Assembly (NCBI GenBank): GCA_963695335.1 | Contig: OY968764.1 | Coordinates: 416,001 to 480,000, forward strand | From: an uncultured bacterium | GTDB taxonomy: Bacteria > Babelota > Babeliae > Babelales > Vermiphilaceae | Direction: 5' to 3' | Length of the DNA: 64,000 nt | In this document: positions 17,933-55,657 of the stretch, in pieces | How positions within the stretch are numbered: the first letter of the stretch is position 1 | How the letters are laid out: every line of letters begins with the position of its first letter | Made by a program: the position numbers and the translations under genes | The notes under the pieces: generated by a model | Databases searched by the model: none | What the model saw: the letters and a program-made list of their open reading frames with translations, nothing else | Told to the model about the DNA's origin: nothing

Positions 17933-20446
17933 CTATTTTGTTGACCAGAAATAGTTTTTTATTTGTTCGAGATAGTTTCCTTTTACAGGGTAAGCTTTTT
18001 GTACATCTTGCTCTCGTTTTGTGTCTATACCTAGGTTCTGTTGAGTTTTCATCGTAACCATATGCAAGTTCCCACAAAAGAAAGAAAAGATAAAAAATTT
18101 CGTGCCGATTTATCAAAACGAGCAAACACTCTTCTAAAGTGTTTTATCTTTGAAAACAAGCATTCAATCGCATGTCTCTCTTTATATAGATGTTCATCAT
18201 ATTGATATTGTTCTTTACGATTGGATCTTGGAGGAATAACGGGAACACAATTTTTTTCTATTAATTTCGAACGTAATTCAGTGGAATCATATCCTTTATC
18301 CGCTATTACATATGATTCAGAAATATCTTTTAATAAAATATCAGCCTGAGTAATATCATTACGCTGACCAGGAGTAATAACAAATCTTAAAGGATTGCCT
18401 AAAGCATCTACTGTTGCATGTATCTTACTTGTAAAACCACCTTTACTTCTTCCCAGTCCTTCATTTTTAAATTGATCATATCCAGCAGAACAGGCATGTG
18501 CGCGGACTATCGTGGCATCAATCATTACATATTCCATATCGGGATCCTCTGCACAAAAACTGAGTAATTTTTCCCAAATATGTTTTTTTGACCAAGCATT
18601 AAATCTGCTGAACACACTATTCCAATTTCCATATTTTTCCGGCAACTCTCTCCATTGTGCTCCTGTTCTTGCCATCCAAAATGTCCCTTCTATAAACTTT
18701 TTACAGTCCTTTTCTTCTTTTATATAAATGTTTTTTTGCTGTTTTAAAAAATTAAAAATTTTGCTCCAGGCCATTTCGCTGATATACTCTTTTTTCATGA
18801 TAGCACCGTTTTAGTGATTTGGTTTTTGCTTTTTCGGTGTTATCATACTTCAAAACTTATCTTTTCAAAAACTCAACAGAACCTAAAGATTCTTCATAAG
18901 CTTTTTGTAATTCTTGCTGATGTTGAATATTCTTTTCTTCGTTTTGTTCTGCTGCTTTGTGTGCTAATTGTTGTTCTTGTTTTTGCCGTAAAGCTTGTAT
19001 TTCACGTTTTTCTTGTTTTCGTTTTTTAGCCTCTTCTTCTAATTCCCTTCGAGCTATTGTTAGTTCTTTTTGAGTCTTTTCTTCTAATTCTTTTTGAGTT
19101 TTTTGTTGCCGTTCTTCCTGGAGAGCTTCATCTCTCAGTTTTGGCTCTCCCATTTTTTTAATTTCTTGAGTGACTTGTTGTTTGTTTTGCCGTTGTTCTT
19201 TTTCAAATGCTATACCTGTTTGGGGGTTGTAGGAGGTGAATGCGCCATTTTTGCCAACAACAACAAGTTCATGTGGAGATTTAAAGTAGAAAGCATTATC
19301 AACGGTGAATGTTGTCAGAGAAGATGAAAGTTTTTCCAAATTAACGAGTGAATAGATTATATTTTGTCCGGTAAAAAATTCACGCGGTGCACCAAGTTCT
19401 ACTAAACGGGTCTCTTTATCATCAGGGCTAAAGCAGTAGGTAACAACATTTGTGGCTATGTTATCGAGTTTTTTTCCGGTTGTTGTATTAATAAGATACA
19501 TTGCATTTTTTTCTTTGAAAACAACAAGGTAATTTTTTAATGGGCTCAGGATATATGCCATAACATGTGTTTCTGTTATTTTTTTCCCATGAGCTAGCAT
19601 TATAGAGAGTTCTTTGGTTGCATCATAGTATGTAATTTTTTTTGAAACAGTGAGGTCGTTATTGATTGTTTCAGTAATATTGGGAGTTGATGAGAACCAT
19701 CTGTTTCTTTGTACGGTAATTTGCCGTAGGGTGTCATTATCATATTGTACAACAAGATTATCTTCGCTTGAGTAATCGATTGTTTGTACATTTTCAAATG
19801 TTTTAAGAACTGATTTTGACGAAATATCAAACAGTTCGTACCGAGTAGTATCATTCTGAGGTCTTGCGCCAAGAGGCAACGCTCCCTCGTTAGTATGAGT
19901 TGTATCTAAATGTCTTCTGGCAATGATGAGTGTTGTTTCATCTGGGCTAAATTCATAGGTGATTAAATCACCATCAAAAGAGCCAACTTCCGTGAGACTT
20001 TGTAGATCTATTATTTTTGTAACATGAGTGATAGTCGGTATTTTTTCCCCTATAGGACGTTTTAACAGACTGCTCAGTAAGTACGTGATTGTTTTTTCAG
20101 AGAGACCTTGTGATGGAGATGCTGTGTTTGTGATTACTTGCACCATGAGATATTTTTTTTGAGGACTAAAATTATAGAAGCTCACTTGTGTTGGAGATAT
20201 GGGAGTTGTTTTGAGTGTGTCGTTTTCAACAAAGTTAAGGATCATTCTTTTTTGGTCGGGTTCATAAAAAATGACTGGAATTTGTTGTGCTTCTTCTGAT
20301 TTTAGTTCTGTTTGTTTATGTATTTGTGGTGTTTTCATCTGTTGGAGATACTTTGCCGTGTACTGTTTGCCCTGTTGTGTCATGCGCATACACAAGAGAT
20401 TTGTACTCACGAGTGCACATACGAGTGTTATTTTTATACATTTCAT
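17933..20446 (-). CDS. Exported beta-propeller-like/coiled-coil protein, interrupted near its C-terminus by IS5
   Basis: Repeated FSP..K/T strands and a charged coiled coil; removing the IS and one TA restores the frame ...ESLGIDTKREQ...YFWSTK*. Confidence 0.75.
18034..18883 (-). mobile_element. IS5-family element copy 1 (850 bp, TA duplication)
   Basis: Terminal IR GGTTCTGTTGAGTTTT/AAAACTCAACAGAACC flanked by TA. Confidence 0.95.
18049..18798 (-). CDS. IS5-family (IS427-like) DDE transposase
   Basis: RTGAQWRELP..YG.W, IDATIVRAH, LGRSKGGFTSKIHA, ADKGYD, YKERHAIECLF. Confidence 0.97.
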   Translation of the reverse strand: MKKEYISEMAWSKIFNFLKQQKNIYIKEEKDCKKFIEGTFWMARTGAQWRELPEKYGNWNSVFSRFNAWSKKHIWEKLLSFCAEDPDMEYVMIDATIVRAHACSAGYDQFKNEGLGRSKGGFTSKIHATVDALGNPLRFVITPGQRNDITQADILLKDISESYVIADKGYDSTELRSKLIEKNCVPVIPPRSNRKEQYQYDEHLYKERHAIECLFSKIKHFRRVFARFDKSARNFLSFLSFVGTCIWLR

Positions 20447-28796: not shown

Positions 28797-29161
28797 GGGG
28801 GCGTACTGGCTTCGACGTGTTGTTAGTCGCCTTGAGAGCATGCCGAGCGTTGATTGAGTGCTCGTTAAACAATTGATCGAAAAACAAATGCAAATCAATT
28901 TGATTTTGCTCCAGCTGTTGCTTAGGCAATAAGGTGGCTTATTGGATTAACGTGTCTGTCAGTTGAACCAATTCGTATAATAAAAAGATAGAACTTCCGG
29001 GCGAGATTGAACTGTTTAGTAGCCCGAGCACGTACCACAAGTAGTCTCATATAATCTGCTGTGTCTTTGAGGTGTTATATGAGTATATTCAGAGAATAAG
29101 CATGTAGCGCTTGGGGTTATTTGTAATGCGGACATGGGTTCGATTCCCATCGCCTCCACCA
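28797..29161 (+). ncRNA. ssrA: tmRNA; tag peptide (A)ANQFDFAPAVA*
   Basis: GGGGGCG/CGCCTCC-ACCA acceptor stem with G3.U, GGCTTCGAC, T-arm ATGGGTTCGATTCCCAT, tag ORF 28890..28925; smpB nearby. Confidence 0.96.
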
Positions 29162-29338
29162 GTCTTCGCCCTTACAGGCTTCGTCTGGCTGCGCCGCAAA
29201 AGAAAGAGTTAGCAAATATAAAAAGTTTGATAGCAGAAGGCGAAGACTGTCCGACGTAGCTTTAGCGTAGACGGACGGCTTGGTACGGTTTGCCCTTCGT
29301 AGCTCGTTAGAGCGTAGTAGGGCCAGCTTTTTAAAGGT
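29155..29338 (+). repeat. Direct repeat left copy (tmRNA 3' end plus type B units)
   Basis: Near identity with 38719..38902. Confidence 0.95.
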
Positions 29339-29434
29339 TGGGCTAAGAATTAAAATTAAAGATCGATACTCAAAGCGAAGGCTGTCCGCCAAAGCCTTGG
29401 CGACGGCGGGCGATAAAATAAAAAGTCATTATAT

Positions 29435-33041: not shown

Positions 33042-33957
33042 ATGTTAAATTTATTTGAGTTCACTAGAGGTCTTTGCCCCGCGTTGCATTAATATACGTA
33101 TTGCACCAGTTTTTCCGAGGGATTCTGCATAGTCCAATGGGGTTTGCATGTCTTTGCCATCAGGGTTAGCTTTAAGATTTATGTCTGCGCCAGCATTTAA
33201 TAAATTTTCGATTCCATCGTTCGCCACTTTGCTATTGTTATTCATCCAGATCGCAAAAAATAATGCTGGCATAGGAGAAAGATTACGTACTTCTGTAGTT
33301 ATATTCTGATTAATATCTATTCCATTCTTGAGGCAAAAGGTAATTACATTTTTGTCCCATTCATAAGAGCCATTATTCCATATTTTATCTATTATTTTAT
33401 CATAACCATGAAGTTTAAGCTGTTGTATTAATTCAAAAAAATCAGCCCTTATTTGTGAGGAACGAATGATCTCAAGTCCATTTTTTTGAATCATGTCTGC
33501 TATGGTTGGTACCTTCGAACCGTTATTCAAAATTTTAACACCAGCAAAATCTACTCCTTTAGCAACAAGCGATGACATAGTCTTGAGTATTAGAGGGTCA
33601 GTATTAGTTGATCTATAGGATCCCTGCATATTATTAAAAACATCCACAACAGCTTGAGCAACTGATTTTCCTTTGTAAGGAATATCAGTTTTTGCTCCAG
33701 ATTCAAGCAATGCATTTACTATGCCAAATTTTCCAAGTAATAATGCCTGCCATAAAGGTGTTTTACCATCCGATTCAACATTATTTATGTCAGCACCTGC
33801 GCTAATTGCTTTCTTAGCTCCCTCTATTGAACCATCAAGTATGGCCTTCATTAGTTGTGATTGAATTTCGGGGTTGACTGTAGGTTGGGTTGTTGGTTGT
33901 ATGGGAGTTATGGTTGTTGTTTGTATCCCCTTGGACTTTTCTTCTTCTTTTGTTCTA

Positions 33958-34807
33958 GGTTCTGTTGAGTTTTTGAAAAGATAAGTTTTGAAGTATGATA
34001 ACACCGAAAAAGCAAAAACCAAATCACTAAAACGGTGCTATCATGAAAAAAGAGTATATCAGCGAAATGGCCTGGAGCAAAATTTTTAATTTTTTAAAAC
34101 AGCAAAAAAACATTTATATAAAAGAAGAAAAGGACTGTAAAAAGTTTATAGAAGGGACATTTTGGATGGCAAGAACAGGAGCACAATGGAGAGAGTTGCC
34201 GGAAAAATATGGAAATTGGAATAGTGTGTTCAGCAGATTTAATGCTTGGTCAAAAAAACATATTTGGGAAAAATTACTCAGTTTTTGTGCAGAGGATCCC
34301 GATATGGAATATGTAATGATTGATGCCACGATAGTCCGCGCACATGCCTGTTCTGCTGGATATGATCAATTTAAAAATGAAGGACTGGGAAGAAGTAAAG
34401 GTGGTTTTACAAGTAAGATACATGCAACAGTAGATGCTTTAGGCAATCCTTTAAGATTTGTTATTACTCCTGGTCAGCGTAATGATATTACTCAGGCTGA
34501 TATTTTATTAAAAGATATTTCTGAATCATATGTAATAGCGGATAAAGGATATGATTCCACTGAATTACGTTCGAAATTAATAGAAAAAAATTGTGTTCCC
34601 GTTATTCCTCCAAGATCCAATCGTAAAGAACAATATCAATATGATGAACATCTATATAAAGAGAGACATGCGATTGAATGCTTGTTTTCAAAGATAAAAC
34701 ACTTTAGAAGAGTGTTTGCTCGTTTTGATAAATCGGCACGAAATTTTTTATCTTTTCTTTCTTTTGTGGGAACTTGCATATGGTTACGATGAAAACTCAA
34801 CAGAACC
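33958..34807 (+). mobile_element. IS5-family element copy 2 (850 bp, inserted in CTAG, TA duplicated)
   Basis: Same IRs and identical transposase as copy 1, inverted orientation. Confidence 0.95.
34043..34792 (+). CDS. IS5-family DDE transposase
   Basis: Protein identical to 18049..18798. Confidence 0.97.
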   Translation: MKKEYISEMAWSKIFNFLKQQKNIYIKEEKDCKKFIEGTFWMARTGAQWRELPEKYGNWNSVFSRFNAWSKKHIWEKLLSFCAEDPDMEYVMIDATIVRAHACSAGYDQFKNEGLGRSKGGFTSKIHATVDALGNPLRFVITPGQRNDITQADILLKDISESYVIADKGYDSTELRSKLIEKNCVPVIPPRSNRKEQYQYDEHLYKERHAIECLFSKIKHFRRVFARFDKSARNFLSFLSFVGTCIWLR

Positions 34808-35007
34808 TAGTTTGTTGTGTTTTAGCAATATGTTCACCAGCTTTTTGTGCTGCTTTTTCAAGTGCTGATAGAGTTTCTTCTAATGATGTTTTTTTATTCT
34901 TATTAGGTATTTCCGTTGCAAAAATGAGTGTTGAATATATGCCTAAACAAGCAAATAAAGTTTTGAGTAGTTTTACATTACACATAAAAATATCCATTAA
35001 TGGTGTT

Positions 35008-36648
35008 TTATAATTTTAAATTTTTATAAACCTTTTTTCTTAAGCCAATTTCGTGAATTTTAATTTCATGGTTTGCATCATCGACTGAAAAAATAATTCT
35101 ATAGCCGCCAATGCGTAATCGGTATTTGCCAGATCCATCTTTAAGTTTTTTTACATCACAACCATGATTAGGCCAATTTTTAAGTTGTTTTATACCATTC
35201 TTTATTGTGTCATTGAGTAATCGAGCGTTAATTTTTTTATCGATTAAAATTTCATATTGATTCTGTGCAGAAGAGGATGTAATGTTTGCAGTTTTAGGGG
35301 TTGAGGCGATATAGCTAGGAGTATTGGTTATTGGAGTTATTGATGCAGTTGATGTTGGAATTGTTGTCGATGTAGTCGATGTTGCTAAAGTAGTATTTAC
35401 AGGGGTTGTTTCTTCTGGTTCAGGTAAGGATGATTTTGTTTTTGAGGGTTCGGTGGATGTTTGAGGAGCAGTTTGTGTAGGTGTTGTTTGTGCCAACTGT
35501 TTGCCGCTTTTAATTGTTTGTTTTTTCGGTTCAATTTTTTTTGGCTGTTTTTTCCCCTGTTGTATTGTCTTTTTTTGTTGTTTTTGCAACTTTTCTTCAT
35601 TTAATTCTACAATAAAAGCGCGCATATTTTCATCAGCTTGTTTTTGAGAAATGATTGATATGCCATATTGGCTAAATAAATGTAATATGGCATTATTTCC
35701 TTTATCATAGGCTATATCTAAAGGTGTAATGCCGTACACGCTTTCTGCATTAATGTCGGCATTGGCAATGAGTAATGATTTGCAAATCTCTATATTTCCA
35801 AACCAAACAGCTGTATGTAAAGGGGTAAAGCCGCCAATTGTTTTTGAATTTACATCAGCACCTTTTTTTATAAGATAATTTACAATATTGAGATGTTGAG
35901 CTTTACAGGCAATATTGAGTGGAGTTGCTCCATCAGTCATTGTTTTTTCTTCTATATTAGCCTTAGCATCAACTAAGAGACGTACAATATTCAGTGTTCC
36001 AAATTGACAGGCTGCATGAAGTGCGCTTCTATTTTTTTTGTCTACAATATTTACATTAGCTCCTTTTTTGATTAAAAAATCAACGATTTGATCATGTTTA
36101 TATTCACAGGCAAATATTAAAGGAGTTACGCCTCTACCATTTTGAATATCTTTGTCGGCATCATGATCAATTAAAGTTTTTACAAGATCTAATAGACCTA
36201 ATTCACATACAAGATGGAGGGGCGTTCCTAGGTCTGTGTTTTGAATATTTGCATTTGCACCATTGTTGAGCAAAAGATTTACAATAGATATACGTTTAAA
36301 TTGACAGGCAAGATATAATGGAGAATCTCCTTCTTTAGACTGAGCATTTACATCAGCTCCTAGTTCAATCAAAAGTTTTGCTATATTAAAATCATTTTGT
36401 GCGCAAGCATAGAATAATGGGGTACCGCCCGTGGCATCACGAGCATTTGCATCAGCGCCTTGTTGGATAAAATATTCTATATTACTAGGGAGAGGTTTCT
36501 CTTTTTTACATTCACTAAATAATAGGTTGTTTAAAATAGTTTGTTTTTTTTCCAGTTGTTTTTCATTTGATTCCATTGTTAGTGTTAATGGTGCATAGCT
36601 CAGTAAGGCTGTCCATAGTATAGATAAACAAATAGTTTTACAATTCAT
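35008..36648 (-). CDS. Exported ankyrin-repeat protein with C-terminal RelE/ParE-like domain
   Basis: Signal peptide, ~9 ankyrin repeats, K/Q then T/S/P linker, DVKKLK...YRLRIGGYRIIFSVDD...I.IHEIGLRKKVY. Confidence 0.9.
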   Translation of the reverse strand: MNCKTICLSILWTALLSYAPLTLTMESNEKQLEKKQTILNNLLFSECKKEKPLPSNIEYFIQQGADANARDATGGTPLFYACAQNDFNIAKLLIELGADVNAQSKEGDSPLYLACQFKRISIVNLLLNNGANANIQNTDLGTPLHLVCELGLLDLVKTLIDHDADKDIQNGRGVTPLIFACEYKHDQIVDFLIKKGANVNIVDKKNRSALHAACQFGTLNIVRLLVDAKANIEEKTMTDGATPLNIACKAQHLNIVNYLIKKGADVNSKTIGGFTPLHTAVWFGNIEICKSLLIANADINAESVYGITPLDIAYDKGNNAILHLFSQYGISIISQKQADENMRAFIVELNEEKLQKQQKKTIQQGKKQPKKIEPKKQTIKSGKQLAQTTPTQTAPQTSTEPSKTKSSLPEPEETTPVNTTLATSTTSTTIPTSTASITPITNTPSYIASTPKTANITSSSAQNQYEILIDKKINARLLNDTIKNGIKQLKNWPNHGCDVKKLKDGSGKYRLRIGGYRIIFSVDDANHEIKIHEIGLRKKVYKNLKL

Positions 36649-37079
36649 ATTAATCCTTTAGAAAACAGTATTACCAATTCATTTTTAATTTAGGATAATA
36701 GCCATGAAATTCTCTTTGGTTATAAACACTGTTTTTTTATGATTTAACAATCAGGAATGCAAAATCAATAGTTGGGATAATGATTCATTACCCTTTTTTC
36801 TCATTGCAAATTTTTTTCAAGACTAAAGACACATCACTTTTCATACCAATTACATGATATAGGTGTATTTTTTTTGCCATTTGTTCTCTTGTAGTTCATG
36901 CACACTGAACATGTGATTTTTTGTCAGGTGTTGAACTGTCTCCAAGTTGTCGACAGTTTGTTTACGACAGTCTTGATAAACCGTGCCTTAAAGGTAAAGG
37001 CGCAAGTTAAAGTATTAAATATCATCGTGTTTTGGAGCTTGATATTGTGGTTTGTCTCAATGATTACGGACTTCCATAT

Positions 37080-37612
37080 TTATAATTTATCCTCATAGTA
37101 GAAATACTTATCTTTGAGTCTTCGATAGGTATCGTAATGCATTTTAGGGGGTTTTTTATATGCGTCGAGATCTCCGCCTTTTTGTTTGATGAGTTCTTTA
37201 ACTTTATCTTGCATATGAGCATGGCGCCATGTAGGACATAGGCGTTGGCTGGCATAGCTTAGGTTTAGACAGTTCCTGCAAAGAAAAATACTCTGCTCGG
37301 CAAAATAAAGAAAACGCATGCGTTTTTGGCATAATGGGCATTTAAAAAAATAGCGAAATCCGCCATAATTACAGGTTAATTTGTCTATAGCTATCATATA
37401 AGAGCAATTTTTACGATTTCTATAGGTTATTTTAAGTGATTGGGGTATGCATCAGCTTTGACGTCCAGTGGTTTTACCATGAAGCCGGTTATAGAGCGTT
37501 TTTTGGTGTTTTCTTTATAAAGTTTGAATGAGTCAATGGATGGTAGATTTGAGCAAAGCTTTTTTCGTACATGCTTCTTTTTTACTTTCCAATACCAGCC
37601 CCAATGTGTCAT
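37080..37612 (-). pseudogene. Frameshifted mobile-element-associated CxxC protein
   Basis: GGFRYFFKCPLC..CRNC.LSYASQ..KPPKMH..TY; one extra A in the A-run near 37430 would fuse it to ORF 37427..37612. Confidence 0.7.
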
Positions 37613-38596: not shown

Positions 38597-38718
38597 ATAA
38601 ACAAGTATTATTGATTTAAGAGATATTTATAAGCTGGCTTTTCGTAATTGAGTATTAAATTCTAGAACTAGTGGTGCCATTTTTTTCCAATTAAAAGTTC
38701 GAAGTGTATCGCATGTCT

Positions 38719-38902
38719 TCCACCAGTCTTCGCCCTTACAGGCTTCGTCTGGCTGCGCCGCAAAAGAAAGAGTTAGCAAATATAAAAAGTTTGATAGCAG
38801 AAGGCGAAGACTGTCCGACGTAGCTTTAGCGTAGACGGACGGCTTGGTACGGTTTGCCCTTCGTAGCTTGTTAGAGCGTAGTAGGGCCAGCTTCTTAAAG
38901 GT
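38719..38902 (+). repeat. Direct repeat right copy (attR-like)
   Basis: Preceded by degenerate GTTCGA...ATCGC; starts TCCACCA. Confidence 0.95.
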
Positions 38903-40143: not shown

Positions 40144-41163
40144 TTACGTTGAAACTGCTTCCTTTCTAACTTCTTTTGCTGGTTTATCATCACGTAACCC
40201 TAAATAACTTGCATGACGTAGTTTGTTATCTTTTGTCCATTCTTCGAACTGTATTTCACATACTAATAGTGGTTTAACCCAATGAACGCTTTTTGTTGAA
40301 TCATCGTAATTATGGAAGGGATTTTTTTTGATTTCATATTTTGTCATTTTTGCACCAAGTTCTTTGAGTATTGTTGCATCAAATCCCGTACCAACTTTTC
40401 CTGCATAGTGGAGTTTGCCATTTTCATAATAACCAAGCAGTAATGCGCCAAAACGTAATTGAGGGTTTGTGGATTCAGTGTATCCTCCAATAACTAATTC
40501 TTGTTCATTGACGCATTTAAGTTTAGTCCAATTGGCTGATCTTTTTGAAACATATAAACCGTTTCTTTTTTTTGCAATCAATCCTTCCCATTGTGCTTTA
40601 CACGCTTGTTTAAAATAGGTTTTTCCTTTTTCATTTTTGTGAGTAACATAACGAATGATCCCTTTAAATGGAATGAGGTATTTTAAAAGACGTTTGCGTG
40701 TAATCAATGGTAGATGCGTTACCATATGACCATCGCAATAAAGAATGTCGAATATATAGTAATAGATATGCAGTTTTGATTTTATTGCTTTAGAAGCTTC
40801 ATCGGTACCAAATCGTTTTTGTAATAATGAAAAACTTGTAATACCATGTTTCATTGCTACTATTTCTCCATCAAGGATGCAATTTGGGAGAGATAGCTTT
40901 TGTAAAGCATGTACAATTTCTGGATAACTTTTATTAAGATGTTTATCGTTACGTGATTTTAGAATAATGGAATCACCTTTTTTATATAAAAAACAGCGTT
41001 CACCATCCAGTTTTCTTTCAAATATCCAATCTTTATTATTAAATGGTTTGTTGTCAGTTAATTTTGCGAGCATTGGTTTGATAAAAGAAGGCATTGCTTT
41101 TTTGTGGATTAGTTTTCTTTCATCTGGAGAAAGTAGTTGCAATAAATCGACGGTCTTTTGCAT
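40144..41163 (-). CDS. ligD: NHEJ ATP-dependent DNA ligase (LigD ligase domain only)
   Basis: PMLA, ERKLDGER, LDGEIV, FDIL, EGLIAK, YAGKVGTGF, LRHASYLGLRDDK. Confidence 0.92.
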   Translation of the reverse strand: MQKTVDLLQLLSPDERKLIHKKAMPSFIKPMLAKLTDNKPFNNKDWIFERKLDGERCFLYKKGDSIILKSRNDKHLNKSYPEIVHALQKLSLPNCILDGEIVAMKHGITSFSLLQKRFGTDEASKAIKSKLHIYYYIFDILYCDGHMVTHLPLITRKRLLKYLIPFKGIIRYVTHKNEKGKTYFKQACKAQWEGLIAKKRNGLYVSKRSANWTKLKCVNEQELVIGGYTESTNPQLRFGALLLGYYENGKLHYAGKVGTGFDATILKELGAKMTKYEIKKNPFHNYDDSTKSVHWVKPLLVCEIQFEEWTKDNKLRHASYLGLRDDKPAKEVRKEAVST

Positions 41164-41217
41164 GCTTGCCTCAATAAAATAATTTTTGATTTTATTGTAA
41201 AAAAAAAGGAGAAGATA

Positions 41218-42003
41218 ATGAAAGCAATTTGGTCTGGTTCAATTTCTTTTGGCTTGTTGAATATACCCGTCTATCTGTATTCAGCGATAAGTGAGCATAA
41301 ATTTGGTTTTAAAATATTATGTGGAACATGTCATACGCCATTGAAGAATGTACGGTGGTGCGAACATTGCAAAAAAGAAGTAGCGTGGGATGATACCGTT
41401 AAAGGTTTTAAAAAAGATGATGGTAAATTTATTGTTATGACTCAAGAAGCAATAAAAAAACTAAAACCAGAAAAAATGGATATTCTTGAAATTAAAGAGT
41501 TTGTGCCGCAATCAGAGGTGGAAATGCTCTATATTTCTGGCCATTATTATATGGCTCCCAAAAATGAAAAAGATAAAGCATTTTATCTGTTTGCCCAAGC
41601 GCTTGAAAAAGCAAAAAAAGTTGCGATAGGGACTTTTGTGATGCGTGATAAAGAGTATGTTGTGGCAATCAATTTTTATAAAAATATATTGCTTCTTAAT
41701 ACATTACATTATCAATATGAGATACGGCATTTTGAACTGAAAGAGATGAAAAAAGTTAAGGTAACAAAAGAAGAGTTAGATCTTGCTTTGTTATTGATTA
41801 ATAAGCTGACACATAAAACCTTCAAGTTAGATGCGTATAAAGATCAGTTTGTAGAAAAGCTGAAAAAAGCAGTTAAAACTGCCAAAACAACAAAAAAAAC
41901 TAAGGCAGCAAAAGGTAAAAAAGTTGTTAAAAAGAAAGTGGAAAAGAAGAAAACGCTTGTTTCATCGTTAAAAGAAAGTTTGGGAAAAGAAGCGCGCGCG
42001 TAA
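41218..42003 (+). CDS. ku: NHEJ Ku protein
   Basis: AGGAG RBS; MKAIWSGSISFGLLNIPV.LYSA, VKGF, EFVP, Lys-rich tail. Confidence 0.95.
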   Translation: MKAIWSGSISFGLLNIPVYLYSAISEHKFGFKILCGTCHTPLKNVRWCEHCKKEVAWDDTVKGFKKDDGKFIVMTQEAIKKLKPEKMDILEIKEFVPQSEVEMLYISGHYYMAPKNEKDKAFYLFAQALEKAKKVAIGTFVMRDKEYVVAINFYKNILLLNTLHYQYEIRHFELKEMKKVKVTKEELDLALLLINKLTHKTFKLDAYKDQFVEKLKKAVKTAKTTKKTKAAKGKKVVKKKVEKKKTLVSSLKESLGKEARA

Positions 42004-55464: not shown

Positions 55465-55657
55465 GACTTTTACCCCAGATTTCGCTGAAGCTCCAATCCG
55501 GGGACCCCTTATAAGAAAAAAGATTTGGCATGGCTTGCCCTTCGTAGCTCGTCAGAGCGGAGTAGGGCCAGTTTTTTAAAGGTTTGATATTAAAATAAAA
55601 AAAGGGTTTAGATAGCAAGAGCGAAGTCTGCCCTTCGAAGCTTCAGCGAAGTAGGGC
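55465..55657. repeat. tRNA-trailer repeat module (type C and B units)
   Basis: TTGCCCTTCGTAGCTCGTCAGAGCGGAGTAGGGCCAGTTTTTTAAAGGTT, nearly identical to the tmRNA trailer. Confidence 0.8.

Follow-up and report, generated by a model that had tools for sequence, protein, structure and literature searches.

In RelBE type II toxin-antitoxin (TA) systems, RelE is a small cytoplasmic single-domain toxin encoded next to its antitoxin. The E. coli protein is reported to cut mRNA on eukaryotic ribosomes (PMC2807027) and to be toxic to yeast and human cells (PMC4773802). As a polymorphic toxin, Tox-RelE is given with one instance in the survey entry that names it, from Paenibacillus elgii, where it occurs with RHS, HINT and Imm54 (PMC3482391). 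Rickettsia VapC2, a TA-family RNase of an intracellular bacterium, has been reported to act on host RNA (PMC12321070). A survey published in 2025 on RelE/ParE proteins with several domains by its own account left out those without an identifiable antitoxin (PMC11980606). Among Dependentiae, Babela is described as having type II as its sole secretion system and signal peptides on 79 of 126 ankyrin proteins (PMC4378268), 44% of the CDS of Chromulinavorax carry signal peptides (PMC6561590), and TM6 carries two copies of gspD (PMC4776705).

The window analysed here is a stretch of 64,000 nucleotides (positions 416,001 to 480,000 of contig OY968764.1) from an uncultured member of this phylum. One ORF of 546 aa on its minus strand (35008..36648) carries all parts of an ankyrin-RelE fusion. 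The features of the gene are:

35008..36648, minus strand: whole gene, reading signal peptide, ankyrins, acidic helix, linker and RelE domain (ORF, Pfam, AlphaFold2)
36654..36659, minus strand: Shine-Dalgarno-like AAAGGA, 6 nt 5' of the ATG of Met1 (sequence)
36577..36648, minus strand: Sec-type signal peptide, residues 1-24, followed by Met25-Glu26 (hydropathy rule only)
35668..36576, minus strand: N-cap and 8 canonical ankyrin repeats, residues 25-327 (Pfam, AlphaFold2)
35590..35667, minus strand: conserved acidic amphipathic helix, residues about 328-353, GxxxISxxQAxxxMxxFFxELNxE (family profile, column counts)
35266..35589, minus strand: disordered linker, K/Q-rich at 354-384 (net +10), then T/S/P-rich at 385-461 (composition, AlphaFold2)
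35011..35265, minus strand: RelE-fold domain, residues 462-546, with R510, R512, R517, R537 and Y541 (Pfam, fold, alignment)

The tail has the fold, the basic surface and the Arg/Arg/Tyr positions of RelBE-type RelE from E. coli (4v7k), P. horikoshii (1wmi) and T. thermophilus (2khe), but it ends a signal-peptide protein of 430-830 aa that lacks an antitoxin gene. The fusion therefore stands outside RelBE type II systems, being neither adjacent to an antitoxin nor a small cytoplasmic single-domain toxin. VapC2 has a PIN fold. The fusion shares with VapC2 a TA-type RNase domain and host RNA as a candidate target (PMC12321070), but VapC2 is an ordinary vapBC toxin, whereas the fusion no longer has an antitoxin gene and carries repeats and an export signal in addition. 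Tox-RelE, as presented in its survey entry, is likewise a C-terminal RelE toxin on a long exported protein with an N-terminal trafficking module; unlike it, the fusion lacks an immunity gene, RHS and HINT, has ankyrin or Sel1/TPR heads, and combines a constant tail with a varying head in dozens of members from parasites of eukaryotes. The multidomain RelE/ParE proteins also place a BECR domain within a larger protein, but those covered in the survey text are fused TA, membrane or defence modules; its main text mentions neither ankyrin, Sel1, signal peptide nor Dependentiae, and its supplements (the large table in part) contain no ankyrin match (PMC11980606). The ankyrin proteins of Babela and Chromulinavorax resemble the fusion in their signal peptides and ankyrins, in genomes where type II was the only system detected; they differ in that the relevant sections of both reports name no RelE fusion, while here an enzymatic output is predicted (PMC4378268, PMC6561590). 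No description of the ankyrin-RelE family was found in the openly accessible literature searched, and it is apparently an undescribed variant of repeat-plus-toxin effectors.

The domain layout was supported by profiles and by structure prediction. Ankyrin families matched the 546-aa protein at E values of 1e-40 to 1e-67 (Pfam), and PF05016 (ParE_toxin) matched residues 460-541 with 26.1 bits, or 29.9 bits for the domain alone, above the cut-off of 23. NCBIfam returned ankyrin matches only, all below cut-off, and none for the RelE domain; the ESM Atlas returned generic ankyrin clusters. The full-length AlphaFold2 model (49-row alignment, mean pLDDT 84.5, pTM 0.76) begins with an N-terminal cap and 8 canonical helix pairs (~9 repeats). 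A helix spans 335-366, about 375-460 is disordered, and a confidently folded domain occupies 462-546. An earlier note, made from the letters of the window, had read the gene as a signal peptide, about nine ankyrins, a K/Q then T/S/P linker and a RelE-like tail; Pfam and AlphaFold2 agree with that layout, and the PF05016 score bears out its assignment of the tail to RelE/ParE.

By every sequence and structure test applied, the predicted domain resembles RelE. For the C-terminal 90 residues modelled separately (pLDDT 82.6), Foldseek ranked RelE and YoeB first (2khe, E 4e-5; 11 matches at E ≤0.001). Among 48,161 chains searched, YoeB gave the best match (VIA Z 10.1, rmsd 2.3, 78 aligned), RelE gave VIA Z 9.8 (rmsd 2.4, 80 aligned), and the best ParE chain scored below both (Z 7.7). 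The Pfam family is named ParE_toxin, yet RelE/YoeB folds score higher and the mRNase residues are kept; the structure prediction recovers the BECR/RelE fold that the earlier note had expected in the C-terminal 90 residues. Sequence matches of the domain alone were to the RelE chains 9g12, 1wmi, 3bpq and 4v7k (E 0.002-0.6).

E. coli RelE is reported to require R61, R81 and Y87, with K52 and K54 mattering less (PMC2807027). In the alignment to 4v7k, R517 corresponds to R61 and R537 to R81, and in 1wmi and 9g12 the counterpart of Y541 is the terminal Tyr. From the hairpin register, R510 and R512 would correspond to K52 and K54; phmmer instead puts them on K54 and R56. All 58 fused rows (one of them a duplicate) have R512, R517 and Y541, and 56 have R510 and R537. 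The RelE positions named in the note are intact: all five are kept in 56/58 fused rows, compared to 91/93 solo rows, a conservation that is inflated because fused and solo rows were all picked by one RelE-domain profile. The two exceptions, P0042 and P0048, have each lost two of the five residues. The domain has a net charge of +10 in the 546-aa protein, and mean net charge is +9.6 in the clade to which it belongs (clade 1, below), +9.3 and +9.8 in the solo RelE sets and -1.2 in the second fused clade. Some members of the family may be inactive, given the residue losses and the acidic second clade. The RelE part is 43-51% identical to all 8 genome relatives, compared to 30-42% for the ankyrins. 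Its dN/dS ranges from 0.08 to 0.52 but is largely saturated (35 computable of 36 pairs), and the closest pair gives 0.41, no lower than in linker or ankyrins (0.43-0.53). From fold and residues we infer that the domain would cut mRNA in the ribosomal A site in a ribosome-dependent manner.

A profile built from nine C-terminal domains was run on 261 genomes of the phylum. Matches occurred in 85 of these, mostly as ordinary genes of 90-110 aa, and in 13 the domain lay inside frames of 435-1266 aa. The clade of the window gene (clade 1) was present in 7 of the 11 genomes of the genus, with two copies in G002, and also in G033. The gene in G033 consists of two overlapping ORFs (L033:6360-8205), either a broken gene or a sequence error, and was left apart. 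The architecture that the note had proposed looking for in Dependentiae is present; recurrence in dozens of independent assemblies largely rules out an assembly artefact and speaks against a chance fusion. Among 150 matches listed from 1.84 billion cluster representatives (50% identity), 50 are at least 190 aa long, including 45 of the top 46; 47 of these 50 have ankyrins, and the other three resemble N-terminally cut fragments. Repeat number varies widely across the family, two members of which bear the automatic IMG name 'ankyrin repeat protein/mRNA-degrading endonuclease RelE'. Viral contigs contained no relative of the RelE domain in a search sensitive to close relatives only.

A second clade, with a different RelE domain and ankyrin or Sel1/TPR heads, was found in G057, G081, G075, G025 and G137. 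In G137 it forms seven neighbouring paralogues of 618-1259 aa (L070:3323-13482 and L071:529-12042; Pfam was applied to 3 of the 7), which share a near-identical acidic RelE-like core and a C-terminal extension but differ in their ankyrin/Sel1 heads; a SUF-like block, named by eye, splits the array. A word-index search for clade 2 gave one self match among 128 candidates. A tree built quickly from 191 rows and 91 columns put clade 2 on one branch (SH-aLRT 97) and 56 of 57 clade-1 rows, with two short rows, on another (SH-aLRT 94), both apart from 23 solo RelEs of the phylum. The tree suggests that the RelE fusion arose twice. The genome's own ordinary RelBE-like pair (genome positions 226800-227293) falls in another part of the tree than the fusion. 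A second toxin-HTH pair, HigBA-like by eye, lies at genome positions 101107-101764 of this reduced parasite genome. Several solo RelE genes of the phylum (L011, L016, L015, L010, L029, L030 and L059) have one small ORF upstream and another downstream, the latter resembling the N-terminal half of the antitoxin; these may be three-gene TA modules.

The gene lies in an island with these features:

28797..29161, plus strand: tmRNA, left island edge (context)
29145..29338, plus strand: left copy of a 194-nt direct repeat, starting in the tmRNA 3' end (97% identity)
38709..38902, plus strand: right copy of the repeat (97% identity), making the island about 9.6 kb
33955..34810, plus strand: IS5-type element, inverted repeats of 19 nt (6 near-identical genome copies)

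The IS5-type element splits the downstream signal-peptide ankyrin gene into 34797-34997 and 33051-about 33954, and an intact relative of that gene adjoins the fusion on L078. Another IS5-type copy is present at about 18031-18885 of the window. Also on the island are two ankyrin genes and genes resembling PhzF and TauD; the scan of its ORFs showed no integrase. The earlier note had placed the gene in an island at tmRNA and linked it to the rescue of RelE-stalled ribosomes. The island is real, as its repeats show, but the functional link fails: tmRNA was absent from the 15 loci scanned around other fusions, and four orthologues have ATP-synthase F0 genes (assigned by eye) on one side and cysK on the other. 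The tmRNA is the insertion site of the island, coincidental to the function of the gene. The sequence after tmRNA (29136-29340) has weaker copies in the genome, one at about 55525-55584 just after tRNA-Met, and may be a small repeat element associated with the ends of tRNAs. Upstream of the gene, small zinc-ribbon-like ORFs (37080-37612) have a 67% identical copy at genome positions 889382-889930, possibly a mobile-element remnant. Divergent genes for an ATP-dependent DNA ligase and Ku, an end-joining pair, occupy 40144-42003, outside the right repeat. No short sequence record at the locus spans the gene; one of 151 nt covers 35127-35277, with too few linker-side letters to bridge.

The absence of an adjacent antitoxin, remarked in the note, holds: Pfam found none among the neighbouring small ORFs, and known antitoxin families, from which unfamiliar ones could escape, numbered 0 among 51 small ORFs near 13 fusions. 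A small ORF lies directly upstream in 38 of 41 solo RelE rows (some rows duplicated). Protection in trans by a related RelBE pair was rejected, as a solo RelE match was present in only 2 of 8 clade-1 genomes. In 48 of the 51 family proteins an acidic helix of 28 residues comes after the last ankyrin; among the 1047 ORFs of this genome, the window gene alone has it. Its hydrophobic stripe is formed by A338, M342, F345, I346 and L349. The profile of the helix reached 5 bits at best, which is not significant, against 34 upstream antitoxin-like ORFs of the phylum, and this speaks against the helix being a relic of the phylum's RelB-like antitoxins.

Identity to the closest relative is low at the N-terminus (signal 33%, first repeats 45%) and higher towards the tail (last three repeats 73%, helix 96%, RelE 80%), and dS along the same pair drops from about 0.9 to 0.07-0.44. 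The rise in identity and fall in dS indicate that the head was swapped and the tail cassette retained. Across the family the tail is constant and the head variable, although the searches themselves used the tail as query. The pTM of the full-length model, 0.76, is higher than the roughly 0.64 expected, by estimate, were only the ankyrins and helix placed. A two-chain prediction of residues 205-360 with 458-546 scored 0.58, compared to 0.00 for the best of 3 controls; the runs share at least 87% of contacts and the partner pLDDT is at least 79. Of 157 solved complexes, 116 attained the docking mark, as did 2 of 215 mismatches; among those that did, only 18 solved complexes, but both mismatches, lie at ≤0.60. 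The models give a weak hint that the RelE domain may be bound by the last ankyrins and the acidic helix, which would then act as a cis-inhibitor. The proposal in the note that the ankyrins are a host-targeting module thus divides: the variable N-terminal repeats may fit it, while the last repeats travel with the helix and RelE and may inhibit.

The signal-peptide-like start that the note had read was supported by a hydropathy rule, by which all signal peptides here were called. The rule also picked 492 of the 1047 ORFs of the genome (about 47%), so the signal indicates export and not destination. It was passed by 29 of 51 family proteins; most of the others start at or after the mature Met and look N-terminally truncated. 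A Met at positions 17-30 was found in 277 of the 492 signal-peptide-like ORFs compared to 100 of 449 controls, followed most often by Glu (108). Genome-wide, 194 of these 277 have a Shine-Dalgarno word before the first Met and 8 have one before the internal Met, so the signal is translated, and the mature protein probably starts at the internal Met (residue +1). The window gene follows this pattern with Met25-Glu26 (Met codon 36574-36576), the typical mature start of the lineage. Met25 as the real start of a cytoplasmic form was rejected: no Shine-Dalgarno sequence precedes it, and the genome-wide start statistics oppose it. Mature proteins that start with Met would resemble eukaryotic cytosolic proteins at the N-terminus; that Met-Glu is a sorting tag or mimics N-end-rule/NatB substrates is a guess.

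The genome (1.37 Mb, one contig, 94% complete) encodes two secretins, two secretion/pilus ATPases above cut-off and two ATP/ADP translocases, and has 73 Ank_2 matches. One marker each for T3SS, T4SS and T6SS was searched in this 94% complete genome, and none was found. The secretins, translocases and many ankyrins agree with published Dependentiae traits, with assignment to that phylum and with a host-dependent context. By analogy, the host of the source bacterium would be a protist.

Taken together, sequence and models make it somewhat more probable than not that the protein is a Sec/T2SS-exported, ribosome-dependent mRNase directed against the protist host. Translation would begin at Met1 with the signal peptide, as the sequence statistics support. 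Sec export would then separate the nuclease from the parasite's own ribosomes, so that no antitoxin gene would be needed, and the protein would leave by the type II secretion/pilus machine or in vesicles and enter the host cell. A type II substrate would, on this reading, also have to pass a vacuole membrane to arrive in the host cytosol, a point against it. There, the variable N-terminal repeats would probably bind a host partner, while the last repeats and acidic helix, if the weak model support holds, would probably keep RelE inactive until release. Fold, residues and charge suggest that the RelE domain, on its flexible 100-residue tether, could reach the A site and cut mRNA; host translation would be shut down, and nucleotides, amino acids and ATP set free. 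A fuller version, in which Dependentiae domesticated RelE at least twice into self-muzzled exported mRNases with a constant cassette and swappable ankyrin/Sel1 heads, active inside the protist, is tentative and in our estimate probably too strong.

An exported mRNase might instead hit bacterial-type ribosomes, those of the host mitochondrion or of co-resident bacteria. In its native setting RelE works on 70S ribosomes, the isolate Chromulinavorax of the Dependentiae is described as being wrapped by the host mitochondrion (PMC6561590), and the single earlier RelE polymorphic toxin is, in its survey entry, of the inter-bacterial kind (PMC3482391). Such targets would however require two further membranes to be crossed, antibacterial toxins require a kin immunity gene and none adjoins the fusions, the markers of contact-dependent injection (one each for T3SS, T4SS and T6SS) were not found in the genome, and ankyrin and Sel1 heads typify host-directed proteins; we regard this target as unlikely. 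It is distinctly unlikely, too, that the gene is a one-gene toxin-antitoxin acting on the parasite itself, cis-inhibited and freed by failed export or proteolysis, for example in a dormant infectious particle. The docking score relative to its controls (a weak result), the full-length pTM and the coupling of the acidic helix to RelE favour such a module, and fused TA genes are known from the multidomain survey (PMC11980606). Against it, the signal peptide is conserved and translated, Met25 lacks a start signal for a cytoplasmic form, the helix has no significant match to the 34 upstream antitoxin-like ORFs, and the head swapping is that expected of host-facing modules.

The RelE domain could also serve to bring the repeats to host ribosomes and not to kill, as an anchor that binds the ribosome or RNA or as a weak tuner. 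The two fused rows with active-site losses and the acidic charge of clade 2 are consistent with this, and a living host may benefit the parasite; the near-complete retention of all five active-site positions, some of them needed for catalysis by E. coli RelE, argues against it and makes it decidedly improbable. A ParE-type gyrase inhibitor, suggested by the name of the sole Pfam match of the tail, or a chance or erroneous fusion, suggested by the fact that no single read or contig examined covers the whole gene, is highly improbable: the ParE_toxin family includes mRNases, as the survey text states (PMC11980606), RelE and YoeB folds outscore every ParE chain, and the fusion recurs across independent assemblies.

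If the protein is a host-directed exported mRNase, it would make RelE an effector that acts on eukaryotic translation in nature. RelE activity on eukaryotic ribosomes has long been known in the laboratory, and the family is a candidate for its natural use. Dependentiae spend much of their genome on secreted ankyrin proteins without known function, and part of this unexplained repertoire would gain a concrete one. A genus-conserved, assayable enzyme makes host takeover testable without culturing the parasites, and the possible built-in inhibitor and the genome-wide mature Met offer handles on effector delivery and switching.
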